Part shown: positions 4,580 through 55,800 of the stretch, one piece after another | Position numbering within the stretch: the first letter of the stretch is position 1 | How the letters are laid out: each line of letters begins with the position of its first letter | Assembly: GCA_016783355.1 (NCBI GenBank) | Contig: JADHWR010000001.1 | Location: forward strand, 6,072 to 70,071 | Source: Candidatus Omnitrophota bacterium | Lineage (GTDB): Bacteria; Omnitrophota; Gorgyraeia; Gygaellales; JAHJCI01 | Direction: 5' to 3' | Length of the DNA stretch: 64,000 nt | Position numbers and translations under genes: made by a program | Notes under the pieces: generated by a model | What the model was told of the DNA's origin: nothing | The model's database searches: none | What the model saw: the letters and a program-made list of their open reading frames with translations, nothing else

Positions 4580-7500
4580 CTAAGTTACCTTTTCCATCTG
4601 CGCCTCTCGATGTGCAATAAAGCCGGTTCCTGCAGGAATTAAATGTCCAACAATCACATTTTCCTTCAATCCATATAAAACATCCCGTGCACCACGAGAA
4701 GCAGCATCGGTCAAAACCCGTGTTGTCTCCTGGAAGCTTGCTGCAGAAATAAAGCTATCTGTGCTCAATGATGCCCTGGTAATACCTTGCAACTGTGGTG
4801 TGGCTGAAGCAGGAGTGCCGCCCTTTTTCATCACACGCTCATTCTCGGTTTTAAATCTCAATTTATCCACTAATTCTCCAGGTAAAAATTCTGTATCTCC
4901 AGAGTCTTCTATACGCACTTTCTTCAGAATCTGTCGAATAATCAATTCAACGTGCTTATCACTAATCTGCACCCCTTGTAAACGATAGACTTCCTGAATC
5001 TCATTCAAAAGATACTCTGCAAGTCTTTTGTCTCCACAAATACGCAAGATTTCCTGAAGCACAACTGGTCCATCTGTAAGCTGGTCGCCGGCGCTGACGC
5101 GGTCCCCTTTATAAACGTTGGGGTGCTTACCATGGGGCATAATATACTCACGCTCCATGCCTGTCGGTGAACGGACAATAATTATTCGTTCGCCTTTCTT
5201 GCCTTCTCCAAATTCTACAAATCCATCAATCTCACTAATTATTGCCGGATTCTTTGGTCGGCGTATCTCAAATAATTCGGCAACGCGCGGCAGACCTCCT
5301 GTAATATCATGGGTTTTGGCAATGATGCGTGGGGTCTTCGCTAAACAGGCTCCTGCATTAATCTGCTCGGTATCCTTAACTAAAACATGGGCGCCTACGG
5401 GGAGCGGATAAAGACTGAGCACATCTTCTTTCTCATCTAAAATAACAATCTGAGGATGATATTCTTGTTTATGCTCCATCACTACTCGCTCAGTAACCTT
5501 GGTTACAGGATTAAACTCATCCTCAATACTAACTCCTGGAATTAAATCCTCAAATCTAACCCGGCCAGCTACTTCTGTCAAAATCGGAGAGTTATAAGGA
5601 TCCCAATGGACAAAAGCCATTCCCTTCTCAGTCAAAGTCTTATCAGCAAAAGCAACCAGCCCTCCATAGGGTACGGTATAACGTTCAAGTTCCCGGCCTT
5701 CCTGATCATTAATACTAATTACGCCATTACGATTAAGCACAAGAAATTCTTTGCCCACCCTTACTATTTTTAAGTTATGGTAGGTTAATATGCCTTTGTT
5801 TCTTGATTTTATCGAAGAGCGCTCAATCACACGAGAAGCTGTTCCGCCAATATGAAATGTGCGCATAGTAAGTTGTGTGCCGGGTTCGCCGATACTCTGA
5901 GCAGCAATTATTCCTACTGCCTCGCCTAATTCAACCTGCTTTCCCCGGGCAAGGTCCCGGCCATAACAGGTGGCGCAAATCCCCCTTTCTGCCTCGCAGA
6001 TAAGAACACTGCGTATCCTTATCTTCTCAATACCTAAACGCTCAATAATATCTGCCTTCTCTTCAGTAATCTCTTTGCCTGCCTCAACAATAACCTCATC
6101 AGTAATAATATCAACAATGTTATCGAGGGCAGTCCTTCCCACGATACGCTCGCGAAGAGGTATAACCACCTCATCTCCTTCAATAAGTGCGCTAACTGTA
6201 ATTCCATTAAGTGTACCGCAATCCTTCCTGGTTACAATTATATCCTGAGCAACATCTACCAATCGGCGAGTAAGATATCCTGCATCAGCTGTCTTTAGGG
6301 CTGTATCAGCGAGTCCTTTTCTTGCGCCATGTGTGGAGATAAAATATTCAAGAACGGTTAAACCCTCACGAAAATTTGCTGTAATAGGAGTTTCGATAAT
6401 CTCGCCTGATGGTTTTGCCATCAATCCACGCATTCCGCAAAGCTGCCTCACCTGCAGGCGCGAACCTCTTGCACCAGAATCAGCCATCATAAAGATTGGG
6501 TTAAAGGGTGTCATTTGCGAAAAGAGATAGTCAGTAACCCTATCTGTAGCATGTGTCCAGATATCAACAACACGATTAGATTTTTCTCTCTCTGTAATTA
6601 TGCCGTCTTTATAAAGCGTATCTACTTTGTCAACCTCGTTCTGTGCCTTCTTTATAACCTCTGCTTTTTGTGAGGGAATATGCAAATCCCCAATGGCAAT
6701 CGTGATACCCCCTAAGGTGGCAAATTCAAAGCCTTGTTCTTTTATTTCATCTAACAACTGAATTGTTCGTGCGTGACCAAAGCGTTTGTAGCATTCATCG
6801 ATTATATCGGCAACCAAGAATCTATTTAATTCCCTATTTACAAATCCAAAACCCTCCGGCAGCACTTGATTGAAGATGATTCTTCCCACTGTTGTTGTAA
6901 TTAGCCCTGTTGAGTCTTTAGCCTTTCTCTCATCCAGATCATATACCTTATTGACTTTCGTCTTTATCAATTCATGTAGGTCAATTATCTTATCGTTGTA
7001 CGCAGAGAGTGCCGCCGCAGGCGTGCTAAAGATTAAATCCTTTATCTTGCCGGCAGAGCCTTGCTTGGTAAAATAATTGCAACCCAGAATGATATCCTGT
7101 GTAGGCGATGTAATCGGCCGGCCATTGGCAGGAGAAAACATATTATTAATCGAAAGCATTAAAAGCTTTGCCTCCATCTGTGATTCCAACGACAGGGGGA
7201 CATGCACAGCCATCTGGTCACCATCAAAATCAGCATTAAAAGCGGCACATACCAAGGGATGGATCTTGATTGCCTTGCCCTCAATAAGTCTTGGTTGAAA
7301 TGCCTGCATACTTAAACGATGCAAGGTTGGTGCGCGATTCAAAAGCACGGGATGGTCACTTACAACTTCCTCGAGAATATCCCAAACCTCAACCTTTCCC
7401 CGCTCAACCATTCGGCGTGCCCCCTTAATTGTATGAACAAAGCCTTTCTGGCATAACCTCTTAATAATAAATGGCTCAAATAACTCAACCGCCATCTGCT

Positions 7501-10500
7501 TGGGAAGACCGCACTCTTGCATTTTCAGTTTTGGCTCAACAACAATTACCGAACGACCAGAGTAATCTACACGTTTACCTAAAAGATTCTGCCTGAAACG
7601 ACCCTGCTTTCCTTTAAGCATATCCGCAAGGGATTTTAGGGGTCGATTATTCGCCGTCAAGACTGCGCGGCCATGTCTTCCGTTATCAAAAAGCGCATCC
7701 ACTGCCTCTTGAAGCATTCTTTTTTCATTGCGAATAATAATATCCGGAGAATTTAACTCAATCAGTTTTTTTAGACGGTTGTTGCGATTAATCACCTGAC
7801 GATATAAATCATTCAAATCAGAAGTAGCAAATCTACCGCCATCTAAAGGAACCAGAGGCCTTAGGTCTGGCGGTATAACAGGAAGAACCTCCAAAACCAT
7901 CCATTCAGGCTTGTTGCCTGACTTTTTATAATCCTCGACAAACTTAAGATTTTTTAATAACTTTCGACGAGAAAGATTATCTTTAGACTGAGCGAGGGTT
8001 TTTTTCATTCTGGCAATCAGCTCATCTAAATCTGCTTCCTTCAATAAATCCTGAATTGCCCCTGCTCCAATTTTAGAGACAAAACCTTTATGTTTTTGTC
8101 GTGCTTGTGTATTTTCCTCTTCTGGAAGAAGTTGGCCCCTTTTATACGGCGAATCGCCTGGCTCGCTCACAACGTATGCCTCATAATAAATTATCTTTTC
8201 CAACTCACGCAGCCCCAAACCCAATATGGCCGAAAGCCTGCCGGAGACAACCTTAAAAAACCAGACATGTGTTACGGGTGCGGCTAATTCTATCTGTCCC
8301 ATGCGCTGACGGCGCACCATCGAATGCGCCACGGTTACGCCGCAACGGTCACAGGTAATTCCCTTAAACTTTATACCCTTATATTTGCCGCAGTGACACT
8401 CCCAGTCCTTCGCTGGCCCAAAAATCCTTTCGCAAAAGAGTCCATCTTTTTCCGGCTTAAGCGTACGATAATTAATTGTTTCTGCCTTTCTCACCTCGCC
8501 GCTTGACCAGCTGCGAATAACCTGTGGCGAGGCGATCTTTATACCTAAACTTTCAAATTGATTTGGGTTCTCCTCCCTTAGCTCCTGCTTTTCTATACGA
8601 ATATCAAGACATAAAGCTTGTAATTCTTTCATCAATACATGAAATGACTCGGGAATTCCGGGAAAAATCCTTTGTTCTCCTTTGACAATTGCCTCGTAAA
8701 TTTTTGTCCGGCCGCTAACATCGTCGCTTTTCACGGTAAGCATCTCTTGTAAAATAAAGGCAGCGCCATAGGCCTCTAAAGCCCAAACCTCCATCTCTCC
8801 TAAGCGCTGACCCCCAAACTGTGCCTTTCCTCCTAAAGGCTGCTGAGTAACTAAAGAATAGGGGCCTATAGAGCGGGCATGAATCTTCTCCTCAACAAGA
8901 TGAATCAACTTCATCATATAAATATATCCCACAGAGATATTTTGGGCAAAGGGCTCGCCTGTATAGCCGTCAAAGAGTGTAATTTTACTATCCTCAGGTA
9001 GCCGTGCTTCTTTAAGCATTTGCCTTATTTCTTCCTCGCTTGCTCCATCAAATACAGGAGAGGCAACTTTTATACCCAGACTATGCGCTGCCCAACCAAG
9101 ATGAGTCTCTAAAATCTGGCCGACATTCATGCGCGAAGGAACGCCTAAAGGATTTAAAACAATCTCGACTGGTTCCCCCGATGGCAAAAAGGGCATATCT
9201 TCTTCTGGTAAAATTCTTGCAACTATCCCCTTATTGCCATGACGGCCGGATAACTTATCTCCCTCTTGAAGCCTGTGCTTTGTAGCAATATAGACGATAA
9301 CCTGCTTAAGAACACCGCTCGGTAATTCATCGCCCCGACGCACTGCTTCAATCTCCTGCTTCATCTGAATATCCAATGCCTTGATCTGTTCTACATAAGG
9401 CTGGTTTATCTGGTTTGTTTCAGGATACGTACTTAAATCTAAGTCTGTTAATTCCTCTCTATCTACTTTTAAAACGTCGCACAGCCGCCTCATTCTTTCT
9501 TTATTAAGGAATTCCCTCTCTTCCTTATAATATTGTTTTATCTCCTTAATTCTTTTCTGCTGGCGCAACTTCTCTTCTTTAGACTTCCTCCCTCGCTCTC
9601 GACGACTAAATTCATCAATATGCACGACGATACCTTCGATACCGGGCGGAACAACTAACGAGGTATCGCGCACATCTTCAGCTTTTTTACCAAATATTGC
9701 GCGCAAGAGTCTCTCTTCCGCAGAAAGCTCTGATTCAGTGGTCGGTGTAACCTTGCCAACAAGAATATCCCCTGGCTCAGCCCAGGCGCCAATGCGCACA
9801 ATACCATTTTCGCCAAGACTAAGCAATGCCTCTTCGCTAACATTAGGAATATCCCGCGTAATCTCCTCGTTGCCTAAGCGCGTCTCTGTGGCTTCGATTT
9901 CCAACTTCTCGATATGAATAGAAGTAAAGGCATCTTCCTTGACTATCTTTTCAGAAATCAAGATTGCATCTTCAAAATTGTATCCTCGCCAGGGCATAAA
10001 GGCCACCAATAGGTTTCTGCCCAAAGCAAGTTCTCCATCTTGGGTTGCTATCCCATCGGCAATGATCTGACCTTCTTCTACAAAATCCCCTAACAAAACC
10101 AGCGGTCTTTGATTTATGCAAGTATCGGCATTGGTGCGCAGGAATTTCTTCAATCGATAAGTCTTTTTTCCAATGATGATTGTGGAGGCATCAACAAAGG
10201 TTACCTTGCCGGCCTCTTCGGCAATCACAACTGCACCAGAATCCTCTGCTATCTTCCTTTCCATCATTGTTCCTACAAGAGGTGCCTGCGGATTAAGCAG
10301 TGGCACTGCTTGACGCTGCATATTGGCTCCCATCAATGCGCGATTGGCATCATCGTGCTCTAAAAAAGGAATTAAGGAAGCGGATATCGAAATCAATTGC
10401 TTACAAGACACATCCATAAACTCCACCTTTTTGGCCGCAAGCTTGGGAAAATCAGCTTTAAAACGACAAGATACATCCTTCTCTAAAAGATGACCCCCCT

Positions 10501-11980
10501 TATCCAAGGCAGCATTAGCCTGCGCAATCACCTTTTGCTCATCCAGATCAGCAGTTAGGTATTCAATCTGCTTGGTTGCTTTTGCGTCTTTTACTTTGCG
10601 ATAAGGTGTCTCTAATAAACCGAGGGGGTTAATCCGGGCATATGTAGTCAAGGAAGTAATCAAGCCGATGTTTGGACCCTCGGGGGTTTCTATGGGACAG
10701 AGACGGCCATAATGTGAAGAATGTATATCTCTTACCTCAAAACTGGCGCGCTCGCGCGAGAGGCCACCCGGACCCAAAGCACTCAGCCGGCGTTTATGGG
10801 TTAACTCCGCTAATGGATTTACCTGATCCATAAACTGCGAGAGTTGACCGCGTGTAAAAAAATCATGGATTTGATTGGAAAAAATTTTGAAATTTATGAG
10901 ATGGTAAATGGTTAAGTCTTCTGTCTCGCCCATCAATGTCAATCTTTCTCGAATATTACGTTCAATTCGCGCAAGCCCAATGCGCACCTGATTCTGAGCT
11001 AATTCTGCTACAGTACGTACCCGCCGATTACCCAAATGGTCGATATCATCAATCTTTCCTTTTCCCTCTTTTAAACCGATAAGATAGTTAATAACCTTAA
11101 TTACTGTTTCGTAATCAAGAACTCTTTTATCCAGAGGGGTATCCATTCCTAATTTGCGGTTGAGGATAAATCTGCCGCAGCGACTGAGGTCATACCGGCG
11201 CACATCAAAAAATAAGCGGTAAAATAACTCGGCTGCTGCCTCGGGCGTAACCGGCTCACCCGGCCGCATCTTACGGAAAAAGTCTAATAGAGCTTCTTCT
11301 TTACTCTTTGTGTAATCCCTTTGCAGTGTATTGTTAATTACTGTATTATCTTTTCCAAAAAAACTTTGAATTTCTTCATCAGAGCTTAAACCTAATATAC
11401 GCAGGATCTGTGTGACGGGAAATGTCCGTCGACGATCAATAACTGCCAATATGGCTTCTGAAATATCATATTTAAATTCCAACCATGTTCCCCGATAAGG
11501 AATAATCCTTCCATAAAAAATGCGCTTTCCTGTTATATGCGTTTCCTCTTCAAAAGAAACACCGGGAGAACGATGAAGTTGAAAGATGACAACACGCTCA
11601 TCGCCATTAATAATAAAAGAGGCAGTAGGGGTCATCAAAGGAACCTCACCAAAAAACACATCCTGTTCTAATGTCCTGCTGGCAGAGATAAATCTAAATC
11701 TTACCCATAGTGGTGCAGCATAAGTCATTCCTCTTGTTTTACATTCCTCAATATCATATTTTGGATTACCCAATACATAATTGATAAACTCAAGCCGTAT
11801 GTGCCGGCTCGGTGTTTCAATAGGAAAGAAATTAAGAAACTCTTCCTGTAATCCTGAGCATCGCCTCTCTGAAAAAGGAACATCTTTTTGCAAAAAATCC
11901 TTATAGGCCTTGAGCTGATGCCTCAGAAGATTGGGTACTGAATATACTTCCTTTAGTTTTGCAAAACTCTTTCTCTTCAA
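4580..11980 (-). CDS. rpoBC: fused DNA-directed RNA polymerase beta-beta' subunit (RpoB-RpoC in one 2466-aa ORF)
   Basis: The N-terminal ~1130 aa carry RpoB motifs (GRHGNKG, the [10 protein letters not shown] region, C-terminal [15 protein letters not shown]). The ORF continues without a stop into the RpoC N-terminus ([36 protein letters not shown], zinc motif [21 protein letters not shown]). The junction is near 8545-8600. Confidence 0.9.
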
Positions 11981-12383: not shown

Positions 12384-12397
12384 TTTTTACCCCCTTT

Positions 12398-12492
12398 AAT
12401 GAGTCCGCCAAAGTTCGTTGGCGGACGAATTAATCCCGCTGAGTGTGCCAAAATTATAAAATAGAATTTTGGCACATATTACGAAGCGGGAT
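12398..12492 (-). promoter_or_regulatory. Two-hairpin leader element, copy 1 (rplJ-rplL spacer, ends just before the rplL SD)
   Basis: The minus-strand RNA reads AUCCCGCUUCGUAAUAUGUGCCAAAAUUCUAUUUUAUAAUUUUGGCACACUCAGCGGGAUUAAUUCGUCCGCCAACGAACUUUGGCGGACUCAUU, followed by AAAGGGGG-N7-AUG. The architecture matches 56938-57031 and 62985-63085. Confidence 0.7.
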
Positions 12493-15672: not shown

Positions 15673-16326
15673 TTATTCTAAGGCCTTTAAAAGCTCCTCA
15701 CCGAACTCTTTAGCTGCAAATGGACCAGCGGCAGTAATAATATTGCCATCTCTTACTACAGCTCCCCCTGTATAGTTAGCTCCTGCTTGTTGTAACTTCC
15801 CTGCTTCACTTGACCAAACAGTGGCAGATTTACCTTTAAGTAAGCCTGCCTTCGCCAGGATTACAGGAGCAATACAAATTGCGCCAACGATTTTATTTGC
15901 GGCAGAGGCATCCAATGCAATCTTATGGGCTTTGGCATTATCCCAATAAACGCTTGCACCACTGCCACCTATAAAAACCACAGCATCAAAATCAAAAGGA
16001 CTTAGCTCTTCAATCGTTAAATCAGGCTTTATTTTTGCTCCTAACATGCCCTGGGCATAATCTTGCGTAAAAGCAGCAACCTTAACTTCACAGCCTGCAT
16101 CCTCTAAAACCTGTTTGGGAATAAGTAGCTCTTCATCTCTGAAATTTTTCTGCGCAATAATCATCACTACTTTTTTCATCTCTTGGCCTCCTGCCTGCCC
16201 CGTTAGAAACTTTGTTTTTAACGGGGCCTGCGCCCAAACAACCTTTAAGAAAAAGGCACAAAAAAATCCAACCATTAAGCAAAAAACTGTTGTCCATTTC
16301 TGAAGTAGAACAAGATTCTTATTCAA
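15673..16326 (-). CDS. DJ-1/PfpI family protein (N-terminal hydrophobic extension; alternative start at MKKVVMII)
   Basis: Has the DJ-1 core VMIIAQKNFRDEEL and the nucleophile-elbow-like AICIAP. The N-terminal 50 aa contain the 29-bp TIR element. Confidence 0.8.
   Translation of the reverse strand: MNKNLVLLQKWTTVFCLMVGFFCAFFLKVVWAQAPLKTKFLTGQAGGQEMKKVVMIIAQKNFRDEELLIPKQVLEDAGCEVKVAAFTQDYAQGMLGAKIKPDLTIEELSPFDFDAVVFIGGSGASVYWDNAKAHKIALDASAANKIVGAICIAPVILAKAGLLKGKSATVWSSEAGKLQQAGANYTGGAVVRDGNIITAAGPFAAKEFGEELLKALE
16198..16226. mobile_element. 29-bp minimal TIR element (CCCCGTTAGAAAC-ttt-GTTTTTAACGGGG) flanked by cctg/cctg
   Basis: The sequence reads cctg|ccccgttagaaactttgtttttaacgggg|cctg. 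It translates as PLKTKFLTG inside the DJ-1 ORF. Confidence 0.7.
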
Positions 16327-17389
16327 CGCGCTTTTTCGTAATTAAATTGTAGGTCTTGCAGGCAATCATTAATTCCTCATTTGTTGCCACAACTAAAATT
16401 TTTGGTATTTCTTTAAAATAAGAAAAGAGGTCTTGGCAGATTTTTTCTCGAAGATTAGCCTCATTTTCACCTATGCCTGCGGTAAATATTACTGCATCGC
16501 AACCACCCATAATCCCTGCGTAGGCACTAATATACTTTCTGATACGATAAACAAAAACATCAATTGCCAAACGTGCGCGTTTGTTGCCATTTTGGGCTTC
16601 CTTTTCTATGATGCGCATATCATTGCTCAGGCCGGAAATTCCCTTTAATCCACTTTTTTTATTGAGAACATTTTCTACCTTTTTGCTATCCCAATGTCTT
16701 TCATGTTGCAAATAAGTAATTATTGCCGGGTCAATATCCCCGCAGCGTGTACCCATAATTAAACCCTCTAATGGCGTAAAACCCATACTTGTATCAATGA
16801 CCTTACCAAACTTTATTGCGGTGATACTACAACCATTGCCTAAATGACAGGTAATCAGCTTTAATTTTGCCAAAGACCGGCCTAATCTCCTCGCTGCCTC
16901 CTGGGCAACATACTCATGACTCGATCCGTGAAAACCATATCTTCTTATTGCATACTGCTGATAAAAGCGATAAGGCAAACCGTAGATATAGGCGTATTCT
17001 GGCAATGTTTGATGATAAGCAGTATCAAAAACAGCGACCTGAGGAACAGCACCCATTAGTTTCTTACAAGCACGGACACCAGCTAAATTTGCTGGATTAT
17101 GCAAAGGTGCAAGCAAACAACAACGCCGGATATCAAGAATAACCTCCTTGTTAATCAAAACCGGCTTTTTAAACTGCTCGCCACCGTGAACAACACGATG
17201 ACCAATACCGTCAACCTTGTGTTTAATCGAAGATAAAACCACCTTAAGCCCGGCGTAATGATTCTTTGTCTTTGCGTCCTTTTCTCCAATATGGTCGATT
17301 AGACCTCTTTCTAATACCTCTTGCTTAGGCATGGAAAAGAGCTCATATTTAATAGAAGAGCTGCCACAATTAATAACCAAAATATTCAT
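16319..17389 (-). CDS. ackA: acetate kinase
   Basis: MNILVINCGSSSIKYELF is the AckA N-terminus. The likely start is the 12th codon (17389), which forms an ATGA overlap with the pta stop. Confidence 0.9.
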   Translation of the reverse strand: MNILVINCGSSSIKYELFSMPKQEVLERGLIDHIGEKDAKTKNHYAGLKVVLSSIKHKVDGIGHRVVHGGEQFKKPVLINKEVILDIRRCCLLAPLHNPANLAGVRACKKLMGAVPQVAVFDTAYHQTLPEYAYIYGLPYRFYQQYAIRRYGFHGSSHEYVAQEAARRLGRSLAKLKLITCHLGNGCSITAIKFGKVIDTSMGFTPLEGLIMGTRCGDIDPAIITYLQHERHWDSKKVENVLNKKSGLKGISGLSNDMRIIEKEAQNGNKRARLAIDVFVYRIRKYISAYAGIMGGCDAVIFTAGIGENEANLREKICQDLFSYFKEIPKILVVATNEELMIACKTYNLITKKRVE

Positions 17390-26267: not shown

Positions 26268-26913
26268 TTAAAACATCCCAAATCATCTTAACCTGTTTTT
26301 TTGTCTCAGATTTCGTCCCACTATTATCAATAACAAAATCAGCTAAATTTAGCTTCTTTTTTAATGGCATCTGCAAATTTATGCGCTTTTTAATTTCCGA
26401 AAGGCAAAATCCCTTTTTTTTAAGGCGCAATTTTTGAATGTCTGACCTTGCCCTTACGGCAATTATCTTATCCACGATTCTCGCCAGTCCTGCTTCGATT
26501 AATAAGGGTGCATCAATTATAATAAACTTAAAATTTCGGGCCTGCTGAATCTGTATTTTAATTTCCTTAATTATTCCTGGATGCAGAATTTCGTTGAGCT
26601 TCTTTAGGGAATGCTTATTTCTGAAAGCACTCTTAGCTAACCTTTTTCGATTAATCTGTTGATTCCTGGAAAGTATCCTTTCCCCAAATGCCGCAAGAAC
26701 CCGCCTGTAAGCCCCGTTCGAAGTAAGGCGCCCAAGGCGACTGCCCCGCCAAATTCCGTGGCGGGGACTTCTAACGGGGTAAGCCTTTTTCTTGGGCTCG
26801 ATTAACTGATGCGCAATCCTATCTGCATCAATAATCTGAGCGCCTAATTGTTTAAAATAGTGCGCGCACGTCGTCTTCCCTGTGCCAAAACTGCCGGTAA
26901 TACCAACAATCAT
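26227..26913 (-). CDS. coaE: dephospho-CoA kinase, carrying a 24-codon element insertion
   Basis: [15 protein letters not shown] has the P-loop at the likely start (26913, an ATGA overlap with the glgA stop). The [11 protein letters not shown] and LHP-type motifs are present. Confidence 0.88.
26712..26779. mobile_element. 68-bp TIR element in frame inside coaE, flanked by taag/taag
   Basis: The sequence reads taag|ccccgttcgaagt aaggcgcccaaggcgactg ccccgccaaattccgtggcgggg acttctaacgggg|taag. It encodes [23 protein letters not shown]. Confidence 0.85.
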
Positions 26914-28295: not shown

Positions 28296-30964
28296 TTAAT
28301 CTCCTCCATCTCTAACCAATTCTTACCCTTCTTTATTACTACCTTTATGGGAACAGAAAGGGCTAAGGCATTCTCCATCTCATAAGATATCATCTCAATT
28401 GCCCTCTGCAATTGCCCGTTCGGTATCTCAAAAATAAGTTCATCGTGAATTTGCAGGAGGAGCTTCGCCGAAAGCGTTCTTTCCTCAATCTTCTGATATA
28501 TCTTAATCATCGCCATCTTAATTAAATCTGCTGCCGAGCCTTGGATGGATGAATTTACTGCCTGCCTTTCGGCAAATGCACGAACTGCGGCATTCTGATG
28601 ATTAATGTCAGGGAGATAGCGATGGCGACCTAAAATAGTTGTTACAAAATTGTCTTTTTTTGCCTTTTCAATCTGCCTGGCGATATAATCTTTTACTCTG
28701 GGATACCTTAAAAAATAGGCATCAATAAAGCGAGTTGCCTCCTCCCTTGAAATTCCTAATTCCCTTGCTAAACCAAAGGAAGATAGACCATAAATAATTC
28801 CAAAATTTATGCGCTTTGCTACTTCTCGCATCTGATCATTGACAATAGAATCCTCTGTGCCATAAACTAAAGAGGCAGTGGCACGATGTATGTCTTTGCC
28901 TTGCGAAAAAGCATCAATCAGCACCTTCTCGCCTGATAAATGTGCCAGAACCCTTAATTCTACCTGAGAATAATCAAAAGAGACCAAAAAATTATCCTCG
29001 CAACTCGTGATGAAAGCCTTTCGTATCTTGCGCCCTAACTCTGTCTTAATCGGTAGATTTTGCAAATTAGGATTAGAGGAGCTCAGTCTTCCCGTCTGTG
29101 TTCCTGTTTGATTGAAGAATGTATGAATGCGCAGGGTTTTTTTATCTGCCAGTTCCATTAAGGCATCGATATAAGTAGATTTTATTTTACAAAGCATACG
29201 ATATTCCAATAAAATTTTTGGTAAGGGATGCTGGCTTGCTAAGACAGCAAGAACCTCCTCATCGGTAGAGGCGCCTGTCTTTTTCTTTTTTATCACCGGC
29301 AGTTTTAATTTCTCAAAAAGAACCTGACGTAGCTGTAAGGGTGAGTTGATATTAAACGGCCCACCAGCAAGATGATAAATTTTACTGACCAGGCCTTTGC
29401 GCTTTTCTTCAATTTCAATGCCCAAGGCTTTAAGAAACTCTAAATCAAGCTTTATACCCTCTAATTCCATCTGCGCTAAAACAGGAATCAAGCGAATCTC
29501 TAAGTCGCAAAAGATGCGAAAGCTATCTTTAAGCTTTAGTTCTTTCTCTAAAACCGACTTAAGTGTTCCAATAACAACACAAACCTCAAGTGGACTTATC
29601 TTTCCTGCCCCGTTCGAAGTCCCCGCCGTAGGCGGGGCAGTCGCCCCGGGCGTCTTACTTCGAACGGGGCCTGCATCCAAAATTCTCTTCAGATAATCCC
29701 AGCACAGGCTCTCAAGACTATAATCAGACCGGGACGGATTCAAAAGATAAGCAGCAATCATCGTATCAAAACCTAACCCTTCTAGGGCGATATTATGCCG
29801 GGCTAATCGCAAAAAGATATCTTTTAGATTGTGGCCGATTTTCTTAATCTTTGGGTCTCTAAGGACAGGTTCAATGCTCTTTAAGGAGCCTTTCTCTAAT
29901 TCTAAAAAAGAATCACTCTCTGGAAGATAAACTGTCAACCCCTCCTCATTCATATAGAGAATCAACTCACCTGCCTGCCTAAACTGATCAATCCCGGCAA
30001 CCTGCCTGTTGGCACTTCGACGGAGTTTATCCCGAGCGAAGTCGAGGGACTCAGTGCTAGCACTCCGACTTCGCTCAGTGCCAACCCTGAGCTTGTCGAA
30101 GGGTTGCTCAGGTAAATCTTTAAGAAATTTTTTAAATTCTAACTCACGAAAGATTTCATAAAGATTTCTATAGTCAGGCTTCTTTATCTTTAAACTTTGC
30201 GCATCAAATTCTATATCTAAATCTGTCCTTAATTGTGCAAGATAATGACATAGTTTTATTTGCTCAATCTTTTCTTTCAAGCGAGAACGAAGCTTTTGTT
30301 CTTTTATCTGATCCAAATTCAATAAGAGATTTTCCAGAGACTTAAATTTATCCAGGAGCTTGGTGGCGGTCTTTTCTCCTATGCCAGGAACACCCGGGAT
30401 ATTATCAGCTGTATCTCCGGCAAGAGCAATAAAGTCAGCAATTCTGCCGGGTAAAAATCCGTATTGGCGCTTAACCCCTGCCACATCATAAATTATCTTT
30501 TTGTCTTTATGAGGATGCAGAACAATAACTCCCTCATCCACTAATTGCAAGATATCCTTATCAGCGCTGACAATCATTATTGTAAAATCCTTCTCTTTTG
30601 CCTTCCTGGTTAATGTCGCAATAACATCGTCTGCTTCAAAGCCCTCCTTCTCAAATATATTAATTCCAAAGGCCTTGATTATCTTTTTAATGTAAGGCAG
30701 TTGAGTCACTAAATCCGCAGGCATAGGAGGACGTTGTATCTTGTAACGCGCAAATTCTTTTTGGCGAAATGTGTGCCTTGAGACATCAAAACATACACCC
30801 ATATACTGCGGATTTATCTCTTTTAAAACCTTATTCAGAAAATTCACAAAGCCATAAATAGCATTGGTACAAAGACCGTAAGAGGTCGCAAGCCCCCTTA
30901 TGGCATAATAGGCGCGGTAACAGATGCCGTTGGCATCAATAAGTACTACTTGGGCTTTATCCAT
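28292..30964 (-). CDS. polA: DNA polymerase I, carrying two different in-frame repeat insertions
   Basis: 890 aa. Has a 5' nuclease domain (GIPGVPGIGEKTA), pol motif A (SFDYSQVELRVLAH), motif B (RR.AK..NFGIIYG) and motif C (QIHDELIFE). Confidence 0.95.
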   Translation of the reverse strand: MDKAQVVLIDANGICYRAYYAIRGLATSYGLCTNAIYGFVNFLNKVLKEINPQYMGVCFDVSRHTFRQKEFARYKIQRPPMPADLVTQLPYIKKIIKAFGINIFEKEGFEADDVIATLTRKAKEKDFTIMIVSADKDILQLVDEGVIVLHPHKDKKIIYDVAGVKRQYGFLPGRIADFIALAGDTADNIPGVPGIGEKTATKLLDKFKSLENLLLNLDQIKEQKLRSRLKEKIEQIKLCHYLAQLRTDLDIEFDAQSLKIKKPDYRNLYEIFRELEFKKFLKDLPEQPFDKLRVGTERSRSASTESLDFARDKLRRSANRQVAGIDQFRQAGELILYMNEEGLTVYLPESDSFLELEKGSLKSIEPVLRDPKIKKIGHNLKDIFLRLARHNIALEGLGFDTMIAAYLLNPSRSDYSLESLCWDYLKRILDAGPVRSKTPGATAPPTAGTSNGAGKISPLEVCVVIGTLKSVLEKELKLKDSFRIFCDLEIRLIPVLAQMELEGIKLDLEFLKALGIEIEEKRKGLVSKIYHLAGGPFNINSPLQLRQVLFEKLKLPVIKKKKTGASTDEEVLAVLASQHPLPKILLEYRMLCKIKSTYIDALMELADKKTLRIHTFFNQTGTQTGRLSSSNPNLQNLPIKTELGRKIRKAFITSCEDNFLVSFDYSQVELRVLAHLSGEKVLIDAFSQGKDIHRATASLVYGTEDSIVNDQMREVAKRINFGIIYGLSSFGLARELGISREEATRFIDAYFLRYPRVKDYIARQIEKAKKDNFVTTILGRHRYLPDINHQNAAVRAFAERQAVNSSIQGSAADLIKMAMIKIYQKIEERTLSAKLLLQIHDELIFEIPNGQLQRAIEMISYEMENALALSVPIKVVIKKGKNWLEMEEIK
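29608..29669. mobile_element. 62-bp TIR element in frame inside polA, flanked by cctg/cctg
   Basis: The sequence reads cctg|ccccgttcgaagt ccccgccgtaggcgggg cagtcgccccgggcgtctt acttcgaacgggg|cctg. It encodes PVRSKTPGATAPPTAGTSNGA. Confidence 0.85.
30011..30108. repeat. Palindromic 'FDKLRV'-type repeat inserted in frame in polA
   Basis: It contains gagcgaagtcg...agtgctagcact...cgacttcgctc and accctgagcttgtcgaaggg. The same words occur in the tandem arrays at 31007-31200. It encodes PFDKLRVGTERSRSASTESLDFARDKLRRS. Confidence 0.75.
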
Positions 30965-31207: not shown

Positions 31208-32152
31208 TTAGTTTTTAGGGGTTAATTCCGTGGCTATCTTTTCTAAAGTCTGCTTTGCAGTTACAATATCATCCTGCTCATAGAATCTGATCGCATCTTG
31301 AAACTTGGCCTGCATAATAGCGATGTGTTCTTGTTTTTGTTTTTCTTTAATCTCTTTATTTATTTTATCTATTAAGGTCAAAAATGAGTCTCTGTCTGAC
31401 GGGTCCAAAGAAATGGCTAACACCAGTGCATTTTTTGCTTCCTCTATTTTGTGCTCTTCATATAAATCATCAGCCAGTTCCTTAAGTTTTTGAATCTCTT
31501 TTAACTCTGTTAATCTGACTGCCTTTTTATGAATGGCGAGCTCACGCACTAAACTAAGCGTCTCTTCCTCTATCAACTCCTGCTGAAGAGAAGGCTGAGT
31601 CTCTGCGATGGCCTGGCGTCTGCGTTTCGCCCACTCCACCCAAGACTCACCGGGAATTCCCAATTCTATACGTTTTTTCCAATAATCAAAAGCCTTCTTT
31701 AGTTCTCTTTTTTGCTCATAAAGCATAGCTAAATTTGAATATAAATTATGATACTGGGGATTTAATTTTAGTCCAACTAAATAAATCTTCTCTGCCCTAT
31801 CAAGTAAACCCTTGGCCTCAAACATAATTCCTAAATCATTGTAAGCAATAACATAAGCAGGGTCTAACTCAATTGCCTTCTGATAACAGACTGTGGCACT
31901 ATCTAAATCACCGCGCTGCTGAAACTGCAAACCTTGACTTCGAAGAAGACGTGCCTCTTTTTGAAAAGTAGTTTGTTTCTGCGCAAAAAGTGAGGTTGGG
32001 AAACAGAATAAGTTAATTGTTATAAATAAATTAATTGCTACAAAAGAGATAATTCCCTTTGTAAACCCCGTTCGAAATTCCTCCAATCTTTGCTTAAGGC
32101 TTAATGATACATAAGTAGCCGAGGCTTTTGAATCTATCTTAAATCTATGCAT
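31208..32152 (-). CDS. TPR-repeat protein with signal-peptide-like N-terminus; current start codon lies inside a TIR element
   Basis: TPR-like repeats (A...Y.KAIELDP..., NLG..FE..G....A...Y...L.L.P). The hydrophobic segment IISFVAINLFITINLFCFPTSLFA follows. Confidence 0.75.
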   Translation of the reverse strand: MHRFKIDSKASATYVSLSLKQRLEEFRTGFTKGIISFVAINLFITINLFCFPTSLFAQKQTTFQKEARLLRSQGLQFQQRGDLDSATVCYQKAIELDPAYVIAYNDLGIMFEAKGLLDRAEKIYLVGLKLNPQYHNLYSNLAMLYEQKRELKKAFDYWKKRIELGIPGESWVEWAKRRRQAIAETQPSLQQELIEEETLSLVRELAIHKKAVRLTELKEIQKLKELADDLYEEHKIEEAKNALVLAISLDPSDRDSFLTLIDKINKEIKEKQKQEHIAIMQAKFQDAIRFYEQDDIVTAKQTLEKIATELTPKN

Positions 32153-32171
32153 ATCTAAATTTCGAACGGGG
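32066..32171. mobile_element. 106-bp TIR element (no ORF of its own) inserted in the 5' end of the TPR gene, flanked by taaa/taaa
   Basis: The sequence reads taaa|ccccgttcgaaat...80 bp...atttcgaacgggg|taaa. It supplies the ATG (32152) and the first 29 codons of the present TPR ORF. Confidence 0.85.
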
Positions 32172-32433
32172 TAAACCCCGTTCGAAATAGGAAACGCTTT
32201 AATCTATCGTTCAAATAGCGTTTACCCTTTCCAGACTTCAGGTGTTTTTCTCTACTCATTGCATCATATTTATTTAGACAGGCTTCATAATAAATAAGCT
32301 TAAAGGGGCCTCTATTCTTAGTAGAAGACACCTTTCCTGAATTATGCTCACTAAAGCGTTTCCGTAAATCATTCGTTAAGCCTGTATACCATTTTTTATC
32401 TTTCTGGCTTTGAATTACATAAACATAATGCAT
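32155..32433 (-). CDS. small GIY-YIG nuclease family protein (YhbQ/UPF0213-like)
   Basis: 92 aa. MHYVYVIQS....WYTGLTNDL.KR..EHN.GK matches the GIY...YIG-type motifs (YVY / WYTG), a conserved Arg and E..HN. The C-terminal FRTGFTPFEI is encoded by the TIR junction. Confidence 0.85.
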   Translation of the reverse strand: MHYVYVIQSQKDKKWYTGLTNDLRKRFSEHNSGKVSSTKNRGPFKLIYYEACLNKYDAMSREKHLKSGKGKRYLNDRLKRFLFRTGFTPFEI

Positions 32434-32454
32434 TGCTTGTTATTTCGAACGGGG
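32176..32454. mobile_element. 279-bp TIR element whose cargo is the complete GIY-YIG gene, flanked by taaa/taaa
   Basis: The sequence reads taaa|ccccgttcgaaat...253 bp...atttcgaacgggg|taaa. The 13-bp TIR is perfect. The GIY-YIG ATG sits 8 nt inside the right TIR. Confidence 0.85.
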
Positions 32455-32511
32455 TAAATTGAGGCATCTTGATTTTAAGATACATTAAAAAAGCAAAAAG
32501 TCAAGAAAATA

Positions 32512-39282: not shown

Positions 39283-40440
<1,158 letters not shown>

Positions 40441-43287: not shown

Positions 43288-45378
43288 CTATAGTTTTCTT
43301 GCTATCTTCTCAATTTTATAGCCTTCCATTATATCGCCTATTTTATAATCAGAAAAATTACCTATGGATATGCCGCACTCATAACCTTCAGATACCTGAG
43401 AAACCTCATCTTTAAAACGCCGAAGATTGCTAATCTTTCCGCTAAAGATAGTAGTGTTGTCTCTGATTATATCTATATTGAGCGTGCGCAAGATCTTACC
43501 CTTAGTTATAGTACACCCCGCCACAACACCACTTCGCGAGAGATTAAAAACCTGCTTCACGCGTGCCTGTCCAAAAGATACCTTTTTTATCTTTGGGCTT
43601 AACAACCCTTCTAAAGCCGCCTTTATCTCCTCGACTAATTCATAAATTATATTGTATGTCCTTACCTCCACCTGCTCTTTTTTAATTAATTCCTTTGCTC
43701 GCTCTTCTATATTTATATGAAAACCCAAGATTAGCGCATCAGAGACAGACGCCAGCATTACATCTGAAGTGTTAATTAAGCCCACTCCTTTATGGGTTAT
43801 CTTAAATTTTACCTCTTTTGTCTCTAATTTTATTAGAGAATCCCGCACCGCCTCTAATGAGCCGAATGTGTCTGCTTTAATAATAATCTTCAGCTCTTTA
43901 AGAACACCGTTTTTTATTTCCTGATGTAAATCCTCCAGCGAAAACCGATGTGGTGAAATATTCCTTTTTTCCTTTGTCTCGCGCAGCGAGATAAGTGCTC
44001 TTGCCCCTTTCTCGTCCTTGACAACAAAAAATCTCTCTCCTGCCTCAGGCACGGATTCAAAACCTAAAATTCCCACAGGCTGACTGGCAGTAGCTTCCTC
44101 AACTCTCTGGCCACAGTCATTAAATATTGCCTTTACCTTTGCTAAGTTCTTCCCCGCAACAAGTAGATCATTAAGATGTAATTTTCCATTCTGCACCAAT
44201 AAAGTTGCCAGAGGACCCCTGTTTGGGTCCTGTCTTGCCTCAATAACAACACCCCTTGCTATCTGATTATAATCTGCTTTCAATTCTAACATTTCTGCCT
44301 CTAAAAGAATCATCTCTAATAATTCATCTATGCCCTGACCGGTTTTGGCAGAAACCTCTACCGTTACGGTCTTGCCTTGCCACTCCTCAGGAACTAAACC
44401 AATATCAGCAAGTTGCTTCTTTACCCTATCTACGTTAGCCTGAACTCGATCAACTTTATTTATGGCGACAATTATAGGAACCTCAGCATCTCGGGCATGG
44501 TTAATTGCCTCAATTGTCTGAGGCATAACACCATCATCAGCAGCAACCACTAAAACAACAATATCTGTAATCTGTGCGCCCCGTGCACGCATTGCCGTAA
44601 ATGCCTCATGACCGGGTGTATCCAAAAATGCAATCTTACCCTTATCTAAATTAACCTCATATGCACCGATGTGCTGGGTTATGCCTCCATGTTCAAAATC
44701 AACGACCTTTGTCTTTCTAATCATATCCAAAAGGGAGGTCTTACCATGGTCAACATGACCCATAAATGTTACTACGGGTGGACGAACATTTAAATCCTGA
44801 GGCTGGCTTGATACCTCATGTAAGGAAAGCAGGCGTTCTTCTAAAGAGGGAGCCTGCTTGACTTTAAAGCCAAAATTCTCACAAACCTGCTCTACTTCAT
44901 CTTTTCCTAAAGATTGGTTAATGTTGGCTAGGATTTTTAACTTTAAAAGTTCCTGCATTAGCTGCGAGAGTTTAATTTGAAGCTTAACCGCTAAATTCTT
45001 AACAGAAATAGGGAAATCTAATTCTAATACCTTAGCTTGTGGCGCCTCTTCAACCAAAATTGCTTGTAGCTGCTGGGGTTGAGGCTCTAAGGTCTTTGCT
45101 TGAATTTTAGACTTGCGGGAGACTCTTCTCTTTGGTTTAGGGGCTATTTCTTTCCTCTTGATTTGCTTTTTGCCTGGCTCTTTTCGTAGGACCGCAGGCT
45201 TTTTTGCTTTCCTTGCCCCGTTTGAAATCCCTCGCCTAACGGCGGGGGCAGCTACCTTTGGTGTCTTACTTCGAACGGGGTTTGGCTTTGTAGAGGAAGC
45301 CCTTAAGCGAGTCTTTGAAGCCTTTCTCACTTTAGTTTTTAATGCTTTTGGTTTCTTAGGTTTTTTTATCTTTTTCAT
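43288..45378 (-). CDS. infB: translation initiation factor IF-2, carrying a 23-codon element insertion in the basic N-terminal region
   Basis: 696 aa. Has the G domain [21 protein letters not shown] and NKVD. Confidence 0.94.
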   Translation of the reverse strand: MKKIKKPKKPKALKTKVRKASKTRLRASSTKPNPVRSKTPKVAAPAVRRGISNGARKAKKPAVLRKEPGKKQIKRKEIAPKPKRRVSRKSKIQAKTLEPQPQQLQAILVEEAPQAKVLELDFPISVKNLAVKLQIKLSQLMQELLKLKILANINQSLGKDEVEQVCENFGFKVKQAPSLEERLLSLHEVSSQPQDLNVRPPVVTFMGHVDHGKTSLLDMIRKTKVVDFEHGGITQHIGAYEVNLDKGKIAFLDTPGHEAFTAMRARGAQITDIVVLVVAADDGVMPQTIEAINHARDAEVPIIVAINKVDRVQANVDRVKKQLADIGLVPEEWQGKTVTVEVSAKTGQGIDELLEMILLEAEMLELKADYNQIARGVVIEARQDPNRGPLATLLVQNGKLHLNDLLVAGKNLAKVKAIFNDCGQRVEEATASQPVGILGFESVPEAGERFFVVKDEKGARALISLRETKEKRNISPHRFSLEDLHQEIKNGVLKELKIIIKADTFGSLEAVRDSLIKLETKEVKFKITHKGVGLINTSDVMLASVSDALILGFHINIEERAKELIKKEQVEVRTYNIIYELVEEIKAALEGLLSPKIKKVSFGQARVKQVFNLSRSGVVAGCTITKGKILRTLNIDIIRDNTTIFSGKISNLRRFKDEVSQVSEGYECGISIGNFSDYKIGDIMEGYKIEKIARKL
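45216..45280. mobile_element. 65-bp TIR element in frame inside infB (flanks cttg / tttg)
   Basis: The sequence reads cttg|ccccgtttgaaat ccctcgcctaacggcggggg cagctacctttggtgtctt acttcgaacgggg|tttg. It encodes PVRSKTPKVAAPAVRRGISNGA. Confidence 0.8.
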
Positions 45379-46637: not shown

Positions 46638-46797
46638 GTCGCCACAAAAACGTTGACGACCCGCCAAAGTATTGTGGCGGGATTTGCACCAGAAAGTCGC
46701 CACAAAGCGTTGGCGACCCGCCAAAGTATTATGGCGGGATTTGCACCAGAAAGTCGCCACAAAGCGTTGGCGACCCGCCAAAGTATTATGGCGGGAT
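46638..46797. repeat. 57/58-bp tandem repeat x3, each unit made of two hairpins (GTCGCCA-N8-TGGCGAC and CCGCCA-N8-TGGCGG), in the rimP-nusA spacer
   Basis: Units start at 46638, 46696 and 46753. Further CCGCCAA...TTGGCGG hairpins follow to about 46850. One inverted copy lies at 63563-63607. Confidence 0.9.
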
Positions 46798-55731: not shown

Positions 55732-55746
55732 ATCTCTGCCCTCCCG

Positions 55747-55800
55747 CCCTGTACCATACGGTACAGGGCCCGCTCCGTACCATACGGTACAGGGCCCGCT
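55747..55800. repeat. Tandem (27+26 bp) GC-rich hairpin repeat just upstream of the DUF4912 SD
   Basis: Reads ccctgtaccatacggtacagggcccgct / ccgtaccatacggtacagggcccgct. The first unit has a perfect 9-bp stem (CCCTGTACC/GGTACAGGG). Confidence 0.85.

Follow-up and report, generated by a model that had tools for sequence, protein, structure and literature searches.

A 29-bp palindrome in the DJ-1/PfpI gene of an Omnitrophota bacterium is probably a minimal mobile element with a GIY-YIG nuclease-encoding parent

Results

The window analysed in this work is a 64-kb stretch of DNA from a Candidatus Omnitrophota bacterium, in which a DJ-1/PfpI family gene lies directly downstream of ackA (Table 1). 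The long form of this gene starts at a TTG that overlaps the ackA stop codon by 8 nt, and its Pfam DJ-1_PfpI match covers residues 51-214. The N-terminal part was judged by inspection alone to be a Sec-type signal peptide, with a basic n-region (MNKNLVLLQK), a hydrophobic h-region (core at residues 11-27) and small residues at -3/-1 (V-W-A before Gln33). The TTG has no recognisable Shine-Dalgarno (SD) sequence, in contrast to the perfect AGGAGG found at an internal ATG, which leaves some doubt about the long form in this genome. Between the hydrophobic segment and MKKVVMII, the ORF contains an insert, A-PLKTKFLTG-Q (residues 34-44), at the place where the earlier note on this DNA had read PLKTKFLTG.

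The insert derives from a palindrome of 13+3+13 nt bracketed by cctg on both sides, whose arms are complementary at 12 of 13 positions; the remaining position opposes G to T on the + strand and A to C on the mRNA strand. The earlier claim of a minimal element with a perfect cctg duplication is confirmed. One copy of the exact 29-mer is present in the window, and 0 of 100 shuffles contained it. The mRNA of this region is predicted to fold into a stable hairpin (-25 kcal/mol for the 68-nt context, z = -4.1). The element lies 5 nt upstream of the AGGAGG, itself 7 nt upstream of the internal ATG, so that the alternative start is 18 nt away from the last base of the element (14 nt counting the duplicate) and not about 25 nt as previously estimated.

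As a GC-ended stem-loop downstream of ackA, this structure could have been a chance palindrome or a terminator of that gene, a reading to which we give practically no credit. It is refuted by the shuffles, none of which contained the palindrome, and by the membership of the palindrome in a family with target duplication (see below). The palindrome also lies inside an ORF and has no T-run: no intrinsic terminator (GC-rich stem followed by a T-run) was called in 15900-16700, the stem being followed by CAGGCAGGAGG. No promoter was found at the site, and the only Rfam match, at chance level, was located elsewhere in the window.

Table 1. Coordinates of the features discussed in the text (positions in the window)
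Feature	Position	Strand
DJ-1/PfpI family gene, long form, 217 aa	15673..16326	-
Predicted signal peptide, residues 1-32 of the long form, TTG start	16231..16326	-
Internal ATG (Met50) of MKKVVMII, where the 168-aa short form and the Pfam DJ-1_PfpI domain begin	16177..16179	-
Internal Shine-Dalgarno-like AGGAGG; also codes the linker Gly-Gly	16187..16192	-
Third tandem cctg adjoining the duplicate	16190..16193	.
Target-site duplicate cctg (CAGG on the coding strand)	16194..16197	.
29-bp minimal element: 13-nt terminal repeats CCCCGTTAGAAAC / GTTTTTAACGGGG around the 3-nt loop ttt	16198..16226	.
Target-site duplicate cctg (CAGG on the coding strand; Gln33 and first base of Ala34)	16227..16230	.
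68-bp copy, taag/taag, in frame in dephospho-CoA-kinase-like ORF	26712..26779	.
62-bp copy, cctg/cctg, in frame in DNA polymerase I gene	29608..29669	.
106-bp copy adjoining the 279-bp copy, taaa in common	32066..32171	.
GIY-YIG nuclease ORF, runs 21 nt beyond the 279-bp element	32155..32433	-
279-bp full-length member: terminal repeat, GIY-YIG ORF, terminal repeat; taaa/taaa	32176..32454	-
Second 29-bp minimal copy, in frame in tgt	39867..39895	.
65-bp copy, cttg/tttg, in frame near the N-terminus of the IF-2 gene	45216..45280	.

Comparison with homologs provided information on which form of the protein is made. An N-terminal extension, mostly signal-peptide-like, was present in about 70 of 92 parsed homologs. 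At 10 orthologous loci the N-terminus was open, of equal length and signal-peptide-like, and the 8-nt overlap of the start codon with the ackA stop recurred in all 6 orthologs with a readable junction. The TTG of the window aligns with the long-form start codons of the orthologs, some of which have a strong SD upstream. The first 24 codons of 7 orthologs were of equal length, with no in-frame stop and 1-5 stops in each of the other frames, and codon position 2 was the best conserved (0.42, 0.20 and 0.43 differences per site at the three positions). As judged from these sequences, a long DJ-1/PfpI form with a predicted N-terminal signal peptide is conserved, and it is probably the main product in this organism. 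A second, internal start is possible, given the AGGAGG and ATG, the GGRGG motif and Met kept in orthologs, and the 168-aa form chosen by the gene caller. The earlier note had placed the element either in a signal-peptide/linker region or in the 5' UTR: the former is favored by the conserved open N-termini and the ackA overlap, and the latter is less supported, although the internal AGGAGG/ATG leaves room for it.

In the strict version of this second placement, only the 168-aa cytoplasmic form would be made, the upstream ORF would be a decaying signal-peptide relic, and the palindrome would act in the leader on translation or mRNA stability. The spacing of AGGAGG and ATG, the gene caller's choice, the TTG without SD, the strong fold, the 20 of 92 homologs without any extension and the GGRGG before an invariant Met in 10/10 orthologs are all consistent with it. 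We nevertheless consider it improbable, since 49 open codons precede the ATG and align with the signal peptides of orthologs, and the long-form start retains the overlap with ackA. Moreover, no promoter-like site lies between ackA and the ATG, so that any leader would also be mRNA of the long form, and the same SD and ATG are present in orthologs with a decayed hairpin, which indicates that the hairpin is not required.

The orthologs also include both filled and empty sites. On the coding strand of the window, the filled site reads GCGCAGG, then the 29 bp, then CAGGCAGGAGG. Four orthologs (L002, L004, L007 and L008) carry a 29-bp insert at the same point, decayed to varying degrees, and five (L005, L006, L009, L210 and L211) are empty, with CAAG directly followed by GAGG and a single CAAG, CAGG or AAAG at the target. 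Exactly 33 nt (29+4) are missing from the empty sites, or 30 nt in L210, which retains an extra CAA codon. Orthologs free of the element do not have the same linker, as 11 codons are missing from them (10 in one). The earlier note had named an identical linker in such orthologs as the finding that would speak against its reading, and the comparison thus does not refute it. Thus, the comparison of empty with filled sites identifies the element as an in-frame coding insertion after the predicted signal-peptidase site, and at the level of sequence it establishes both the insertion and its duplication at the DJ-1/PfpI locus. The window has 3 nt more than most orthologs at the third cctg, similar to the extra CAA of L210, and this third cctg may be the footprint of an earlier event.

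The inserts have decayed unevenly. The hairpin of L002 is retained (-19.4 kcal/mol, z = -3.5) with one compensated pair (C-G to T-A), and the structure is wholly lost in three filled orthologs. A single old insertion undergoing simple neutral decay does not account for a window copy that is near-intact, nor for inserts of L007 and L008 that are only 55% alike in host proteins with 92% identity. When the mature domains were placed in a neighbour-joining tree, the filled sites did not form one clade (bootstrap 1/100), so that repeated insertion or repeated precise loss at this one position would be needed; a single ancient insertion is unsupported by this tree, which is weak (168 residues, neighbour-joining). 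We infer a recent origin or continued mobility for the window copy.

Uneven decay might instead reflect selection on the palindrome or on the 11-residue peptide in the lineages of the window and L002, the candidate roles being to pause translation behind the signal peptide or to serve as a binding site. The 12/13 arm pairs of the window copy and the compensated hairpin of L002 point in this direction, as do the 5 codons unchanged between window and L002 within the element, which are identical at all three positions against a background of 0.43 for identical codons at conserved residues. Such a co-opted role appears very unlikely to us, as the insert is missing from five orthologs and its structure wholly lost in three, and the sample is tiny. 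In addition, there is a natural subfamily (L143) with ends of the CTCC type seen in L002, which may therefore be a separate insertion.

The DJ-1/PfpI copy is one of seven in the window, with ends CCCCGTTNGAA...TTCNAACGGGG and 4-bp flanking direct repeats that are perfect in 5/7 and match at 3 of 4 bases in 2/7. Allowing one mismatch, the 12-nt end CCCCGTTAGAAA occurs 10 times in the window versus 0.38 expected, a number that no shuffle reached. Five copies lie wholly within ORFs and a sixth overlaps an ORF start. The four other coding copies of the window share the frame xPVR[SN]...SNGAx, which bears out the previous remark that the DJ-1/PfpI copy is read in a different frame. The copy in tgt is a clean insertion, missing from solved Tgt proteins. 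The 279-bp and 106-bp copies together interrupt codons 4-5 of a TPR gene, to which the 106-bp copy supplies a new in-frame ATG. The empty site of the 279-bp unit, reconstructed from the window itself, reads ATGCCTCAATTTACAAAGGG; no related genome yielded one, the gene order around the nearest metF (L223) being different.

The 279-bp copy, 16 kb from the DJ-1/PfpI copy, is the proposed nuclease-encoding parent. It holds an intact ORF for a UPF0213-like GIY-YIG protein of 86-92 aa (Pfam GIY-YIG, E = 3.3e-19), the last codons of which are formed by the terminal repeat; the nearest solved structures are the UPF0213 proteins 1ZG2 (E = 2e-11) and 1YWL. Units of the same repeat-gene-repeat type, 272-308 bp long, were present at 57 distinct metagenomic loci, with perfect 4-bp flanks in 29/57. 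In these independent units of near-constant size the nuclease ORF ends inside the repeat, and the flank supplies the stop codon in 36/57. Terminal-repeat similarity tracks protein similarity (Mantel test, observed value reached in 0/999 permutations), and the proteins are 72-78% identical across phyla. We found 124 short elements in at least 120 genome loci, with perfect 4-bp duplications in 68/124. The taxa with short copies comprise Omnitrophota, CPR bacteria, Planctomycetota, Desulfobacterota, Nitrospirota and one DPANN archaeon. The short copies are often in frame inside genes: 25 of the 124 lie within long ORFs, their length plus 4 is divisible by 3 in 25/25, and their frame is PVR..SNG in 22 and PL..FLTG, as in the DJ-1/PfpI copy, in 3. 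Only 10 viral contigs had short copies, and a nuclease gene was confirmed on none of the 10. These data establish the family membership and the coding context of the DJ-1/PfpI copy, as well as the existence and architecture of nuclease-bearing units.

Terminal inverted repeats and a target duplication of fixed length are the hallmark of DDE transposition. The inverted repeats and fixed 4-bp duplication of the present family are typical of it, and its members might be ordinary MITEs that a conventional DDE transposase sharing their terminal repeats moves in trans, the GIY-YIG gene being mere cargo. GIY-YIG enzymes act by hydrolysis and have no known DNA-joining activity, and we know of no chemistry by which such a nuclease would yield 4-bp target duplications. 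We still regard a DDE origin as unlikely. No transposase-sized unit with the ends of the family was found in 129 loci (~1 Mb) and the window, where only coincidental pairs of separate small copies occurred, and both the position of the nuclease stop inside the repeat and the co-variation of repeat variants with the protein argue against a cargo gene. The GIY-YIG nuclease is the candidate enzyme for mobilising the family.

Discussion

Our results support the notion that the palindrome is a minimal non-autonomous mobile element with a GIY-YIG parent, tolerated as an in-frame insert in the gene of a secreted DJ-1/PfpI precursor, and we consider this explanation likely. The 29 bp would be two terminal repeats joined by 3 nt, a stripped-down form of a ~280-bp unit in which two terminal repeats enclose the gene of an 86-aa GIY-YIG (UPF0213-like) nuclease. 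The element would have entered CAGG at codons 33/34 of the precursor gene and duplicated these 4 bp, by which the protein would have gained 11 residues (APLKTKFLTGQ) in a flexible linker between the predicted signal-peptidase site (VWA before Q) and the catalytic domain. The ORF stayed open because 29+4 makes 33 nt and the palindrome is free of stop codons in this frame. The insert is most likely tolerated selfish DNA without host function and its 11 amino acids are apparently harmless; at most, the stable mRNA hairpin 5 nt upstream of the conserved internal SD/ATG modulates translation.

A bolder proposal, which we put forward tentatively and find less probable, is that the ~280-bp unit is an autonomous transposable element whose sole protein is the 86-aa nuclease. 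Such a unit would make 4-bp target duplications and would spawn hairpin derivatives of 28-100 bp, which would persist within essential genes by being read in either of two frames without stops. One of its subfamilies would insert exactly at host start codons, so that the host ATG might drive the nuclease, whose TGA would overlap the regenerated host ATG. The unit would have crossed between CPR bacteria, Omnitrophota, Planctomycetota, Desulfobacterota, Nitrospirota and a DPANN archaeon, and the DJ-1/PfpI copy, at a site used repeatedly, might be young or still able to excise. If true, the unit would add an enzymatically new class to the DNA transposons, and no smaller autonomous one would be known. 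Should the nuclease suffice for mobility, a unit of less than 300 bp with a new class of transposase would be an attractive minimal insertion tool.

Our study corrects the annotation of the DJ-1/PfpI gene: its product would be a precursor for secretion that carries 11 residues of selfish origin, an internal site might serve as a second start, and the palindrome would not be a regulatory invention. More generally, inserts of this family inflate and distort protein predictions in metagenome-assembled CPR and Omnitrophota genomes, and recognising them therefore improves annotation. The family also offers a concrete parent candidate for protein-coding palindromes, the mobiliser of which has been an old question since the Rickettsia palindromic elements (RPEs). 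The link made in 2025 between small GIY-YIG nucleases and genomic hairpin repeats is extended to an apparently different subfamily and to uncultivated phyla, and it gains the transposon hallmarks of target duplications and of filled versus empty sites. A literature search with the end sequences returned unrelated primer and aptamer matches only, and nothing was found on Omnitrophota MITEs or on prokaryotic GIY-YIG genes with terminal repeats and target duplications.

The closest precedents are the RPEs and the Ssn/NTS system. RPEs (Ogata et al. 2000, 2002), of ~100-150 bp and restricted to Rickettsia, are likewise palindromic selfish DNA found in frame in unrelated, often essential, genes, where they add a conserved peptide and do not destroy the protein (PMC10969869). 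In-frame insertion with an open host ORF was also found here (33 nt in the DJ-1/PfpI gene, 25/25 coding copies elsewhere). As far as the descriptions allow them to be set apart, the present family differs in its copies of 28-106 bp, 13-nt ends and clear 4-bp target duplications; it also occurs in many phyla and has an identifiable protein-coding parent.

Ssn proteins are single-domain GIY-YIG ssDNA nucleases flanked by hairpin repeats (NTS, also SRM), in a repeat-gene-repeat layout that its authors compared to an insertion sequence (Chenal et al. 2025, PMC11893778). Both systems have a single-domain GIY-YIG protein of ~90 aa bracketed by its own genome-multiplied repeat (PMC11893778), and a repeat was indeed found on both sides of the gene here. 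Ssn is defined as CDD family cd10448 (PMC11893778); the nearest solved relatives of our protein are UPF0213 proteins. The published SRM motif HGTCWYN(0-2)YYVSBRHN(0-5)WNVSBRGN(0-2)RNCYNB (PMC11893778) had 0 matches in the window (both strands) or in four family copies. Furthermore, each flank is half a palindrome here and a whole hairpin in Ssn, and the Ssn paper, in which 'target site' occurs 0 times, describes neither target duplications nor coding copies in frame nor insertion at start codons (PMC11893778).

Prokaryotic DDE-derived MITEs, such as the QMITEs of Coxiella, are similarly short, non-coding and present in many copies, some of them intragenic, with terminal inverted repeats and a target-site duplication (PMC5896051). 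The present family has such inverted repeats, a fixed-length duplication seen against the empty site, and ends common to a longer coding element. Unlike in MITEs, the only protein-coding relative found carries a GIY-YIG nuclease and no recognised transposase, and the minimal form of 29 bp is far below usual MITE sizes. REP/BIME sequences with RAYT (Y1 HUH) and the IS200/IS605 elements would resemble our family in that small hairpin repeats are multiplied by a small single-domain hairpin-recognising nuclease. However, these systems make no target duplication and proceed through a covalent tyrosine intermediate, and REPs are extragenic, whereas target duplications are present here and 5/7 window copies lie wholly in ORFs. 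Finally, free-standing GIY-YIG homing endonucleases (I-TevI, Seg proteins) are also selfish nuclease genes that spread between genomes. These enzymes carry an extra DNA-binding domain, recognise a long specific target and lack terminal repeats, and they spread by homologous repair into one cognate site, while the present family enters many 4-bp targets.

Results

The earlier note had described a palindrome with a perfect cctg duplication at 16194-16230, and this was confirmed. The plus strand reads cctg CCCCGTTAGAAAC ttt GTTTTTAACGGGG cctg, with 13-nt arms and one mismatch. The 29-mer occurs once in the window and in 0 of 100 shuffles, and its 12-nt end occurs 10 times against 0.38 expected. 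Pairing of the ends gave seven elements in the window, where all genes lie on the minus strand. Perfect 4-bp flanks were found in five of the seven, and chance was ruled out because the probability is 1 in 256 each. The imperfect pair CAAA/CAAG (coding strand) was seen in four independent copies (window 39859-39903 and 45212-45284; orthologous loci L002 and L008); at 39859-39903 the palindrome reaches 5 nt into the flanks (ATCGC..GCGAT).

Coordinates of the palindrome family and of other features in the window
Feature	Position	Strand	Length	Flanks	Gene or remark
Family copy	16198-16226		29 bp	cctg/cctg	DJ-1/PfpI
Family copy	26712-26779		68 bp	taag/taag	CoaE-like gene
Family copy	29608-29669		62 bp	cctg/cctg	polA
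Family copy	32066-32171		106 bp	taaa/taaa	
Family copy	32176-32454		279 bp	taaa/taaa	adjoins the 106-bp copy
Family copy	39867-39895		29 bp	cttg/tttg	tgt
Family copy	45216-45280		65 bp	cttg/tttg	infB
GIY-YIG ORF	32155..32433	-			in the 279-bp copy; Pfam GIY-YIG, E = 3.3e-19
DJ-1/PfpI, long ORF	15673..16326	-	217 aa		TTG start
DJ-1/PfpI, internal ATG	16179-16177	-	168 aa		AGGAGG upstream, 7-nt spacing
rpoB-rpoC fusion	4580-11980	-	2466 aa		single ORF, Rpb2 (beta) and Rpb1 (beta') Pfam domains; also one gene on the ENA contig
Separate repeat	12396-12476, 56936-57016, 63010-63090		~100 nt		third copy incomplete; hairpins TCAATGAGTCCGCCAA..TTGGCGGACGAATTGA and TGCTCTAAAATTATC..GAGAATTTTAGAGCA; all three directly upstream of minus-strand genes
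CGCCACAA(A/T)..TTGGCG palindromic units	46647-46730, 63567-63605				two loci
GCCCTGTACCATACGGTACAGGGC palindromes	55746-55795				tandem pair

The copies in the CoaE-like gene, polA, tgt and infB lie within long ORFs; adding 4 to the element length gives a number divisible by three in all four, and a single common frame is used, xPVR[SN]...SNGAx. Against solved Tgt proteins, the tgt copy is cleanly inserted, with an alignment gap of 9 residues exactly at NPVRNDISN. The different frame that the earlier note had read in the DJ-1/PfpI copy holds: it is the other stop-free one (A-PLKTKFLTG-Q), the third containing TAG.

Short copies were scanned for by exact pattern in one genome per species, which gave at least 120 loci. 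Hosts among the matches listed include Omnitrophota, many Patescibacteria, Pirellulales, Phycisphaerae, Thermodesulfobacteriota, Syntrophia, Nitrospirota, KSB1, two Proteobacteria and one Aenigmatarchaeote. In the same listed matches, 68 of 124 elements had perfect 4-bp duplications (mostly TTTA/TAAA/TGAA/TTCA, with CGAG/CAAG too), minimal copies of 28-33 bp occurred in several phyla, and the frame was kept in all 25 elements whose surrounding ORF stays open for at least 60 codons to either side. These 25 used PVR..SNG in 22 cases and PL..FLTG, as in DJ-1/PfpI, in three, two of them 29-bp minimal forms (APLETGFLTG, TPLERSFLTG). One minimal copy, in an ArsA-like gene of Doudnabacteria, has exactly the sequence of the window tgt copy, and only ten viral contigs carried short copies.

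Pfam DJ-1_PfpI starts at residue 51 of the long form, and a gene caller chose the 168-aa form. An N-terminal extension is present in about 70 of 92 parsed homologs, in most cases as M-K/R-x, a hydrophobic stretch and [FY]AQ. Ten orthologous loci were fetched; panD follows DJ-1 wherever downstream sequence is present, pta-ackA precedes it where the contig reaches upstream, and the 8-nt overlap of the long ORF with the ackA stop recurs in 6/6 orthologs with a readable junction. The window TTG aligns with the long-form ATGs of orthologs, several of which have strong SDs (AAGGAGG in L002, AGGAGGAGG in L004). In seven orthologs the first 24 codons are equal in length; their reading frame has no stop and each of the other two has 1-5. 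Differences per site by codon position are 0.42/0.20/0.43, and this conservation, strongest at position 2, marks a hydrophobic coding segment. Given the homolog extensions, the ackA overlap, the SDs, the codon pattern and the TTG alignment, a long, secreted precursor is taken as real, with cleavage predicted, by inspection rather than by a predictor, after V-W-A at residue 32.

The earlier note had left the element either in a signal-peptide/linker region or in the 5' UTR. The homolog extensions and orthologous long-form starts favor the linker. GGRGG 7-10 nt upstream of the invariant internal Met (MKKVVMII; window 16177-16192) is kept in all orthologs (L002-L009, L210, L211), where the signal peptide is present too; internal initiation may therefore give a second, cytoplasmic isoform, and dual initiation yielding secreted and cytoplasmic DJ-1/PfpI is suggested.

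Filled and empty DJ-1/PfpI sites (slashes separate segments)
Locus	State	Sequence
Window	filled, coding strand	GCGCAGG / CCCCGTTAAAAACAAAGTTTCTAACGGGG / CAGGCAGGAGG
L002	filled, coding strand	GCTCAAA / CTCCGTTAGAAACAAGGTTTCTAAGGGAG / CAAGGGGGG
L004, L007, L008	filled	29 nt, identical position, increasingly unrecognisable
L005	empty, coding strand	GTTCAAG / GAGG
L009	empty, coding strand	GCTCAGG / GAGG
L006	empty, coding strand	GCTAAAG / GAGA
L211	empty, coding strand	GCGCAAG / GAGG
L210	empty, coding strand	GCTCAACAAG / GAGG

Filled sites exceed empty ones by exactly 33 nt, that is 29 plus one 4-bp target copy (30 nt for L210, with an extra CAA), which on the aligned loci is the classical proof of insertion with target duplication. 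In the ortholog comparison that the earlier note had proposed, none had the same linker without the element: the empty orthologs lack exactly these 11 codons (10 in L210). Compared with the family consensus, the arms are 88% identical in the window and 81% in L002, falling to 69% in L004, 54% in L007 and 50% in L008. Hairpin folding reaches -25 kcal/mol (z = -4.1) in the window and -19.4 kcal/mol (z = -3.5) in L002, and is no better than shuffles in L004, L007 and L008. A leader hairpin is a rather improbable reading. The L007 and L008 inserts are 55% alike despite 92% protein identity, therefore neutral decay is fast. The window copy is either young or maintained; its exaptation appears very improbable.

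Filled sites did not group as a single clade in a neighbour-joining tree of mature domains (1/100 bootstraps). Either the same CARG/G site received repeated insertions, or the insert was repeatedly and precisely lost. The extra 3 nt in the window (a third CAGG) and in L210 could be footprints. Apparent decayed inserts of the same family lie close by in the linker that follows the signal peptide in the homologs P0091 (DPIRR...NPISSGA), P0102 (HPLRERPALSDG), P0033 and P0040, with DPIRRGAETNPISSGA as a further example; this fits a permissive linker struck repeatedly. Separately, the hairpin-keeping L002 carries a 58-aa Y1_Tnp (IS200/RAYT-like) gene fragment upstream of ackA (505-681), probably by coincidence.

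The 279-bp copy, the proposed parent of the family, has a repeat-nuclease-repeat architecture. Its GIY-YIG ORF has the UPF0213 proteins 1ZG2 and 1YWL as nearest solved relatives, and the terminal repeat itself codes for the end of this ORF, F-L-F-R-T-G. A metagenome-contig scan gave 462 relatives, of which 80 loci were kept. They comprise 57 distinct units of 272-308 bp (mode 277-279) with ends complementary at 12-13/13 positions; 29 have perfect 4-bp flanking repeats and 36 a stop codon starting at the first base outside. Left and right ends carry matching variants (CCCC, TCCC, ACCC, CTCC, TCAC, others), and end similarity tracks that of the protein part not end-encoded (Mantel test, 0/999). 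Between Omnitrophota, CPR lineages, Scalinduaceae and Dehalococcoidia, protein identity is 72-78%, and the GIY/YIG tyrosines, Arg26 and Glu50 do not vary. A Doudnabacteria copy has divergent ends but keeps the layout, and its duplication is TATG. The matched ends, end-protein covariation, cross-phylum identity and Doudnabacteria layout show, therefore, that the unit evolves and moves as one piece.

TCCC-type units are placed precisely at the start codons of host genes (among metagenome loci L130-L209, e.g. L144, L155, L156, L162, L168). Their left flank is ATGAA/TCCCGTTAGAG..., and in 17/23 cases the frame set by the host ATG continues into the GIY-YIG ORF; the right junction ...ACGGGA/TGAA, seen in 30/57 units (in 23 of these an ORF of 50 codons or more begins there), makes the nuclease stop TGA overlap the regenerated host ATG. 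ACCC-type units are likewise on start codons (GTG left, TTG right). In the window, the 106-bp and 279-bp copies stand in tandem with a common TTTA (32066-32458) in codons 4-5 of a TPR-protein gene, whose reconstructed empty site is ATG CCT CAA TTT ACA AAG GG; the 106-bp copy gives this gene a new in-frame ATG and 27 N-terminal residues (MHRFKIDSK...EEFRTG).

Discussion

The DJ-1/PfpI copy is a 4-bp-duplicating insertion of frame-preserving size, located after the signal peptide and belonging to the family. It is probably best explained as a copy of a mobile palindrome, in frame and tolerated, that would have no host function. The nuclease would recognise the element ends, perhaps as an ssDNA hairpin by analogy with Ssn, and would drive excision and insertion, aided by host repair. 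A hydrolytic GIY-YIG enzyme is not known to yield 4-bp duplications; for that step a DDE partner in trans is the main rival, which we consider unlikely.

The finding is real but modest alone, being one tolerated copy. It is valuable for its clean filled/empty series and because it points to a variant of nuclease-associated palindromic elements that is widespread and apparently undescribed. Our literature search, whose incomplete coverage makes an earlier description possible, found no paper on these ends, nor any on a GIY-YIG element of prokaryotes that combines terminal repeats with target duplications. In the Ssn/NTS system (2025), small single-domain GIY-YIG nucleases lie between copies of a hairpin repeat of their own that has multiplied; ssDNA-specific cleavage was demonstrated and the resemblance to insertion sequences remarked (PMC11893778). 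In contrast to that system, the present nuclease is nearest to UPF0213 proteins among solved structures, each flank of its unit is half a palindrome, the published SRM motif matches nothing in the window on either strand and none of four family copies, and that paper has no mention of target duplications, of frequent coding copies or of start-codon targeting. Rickettsia RPEs are palindromes in frame within genes (PMC10969869), and the present family is like them in placing in-frame palindromes in coding genes.
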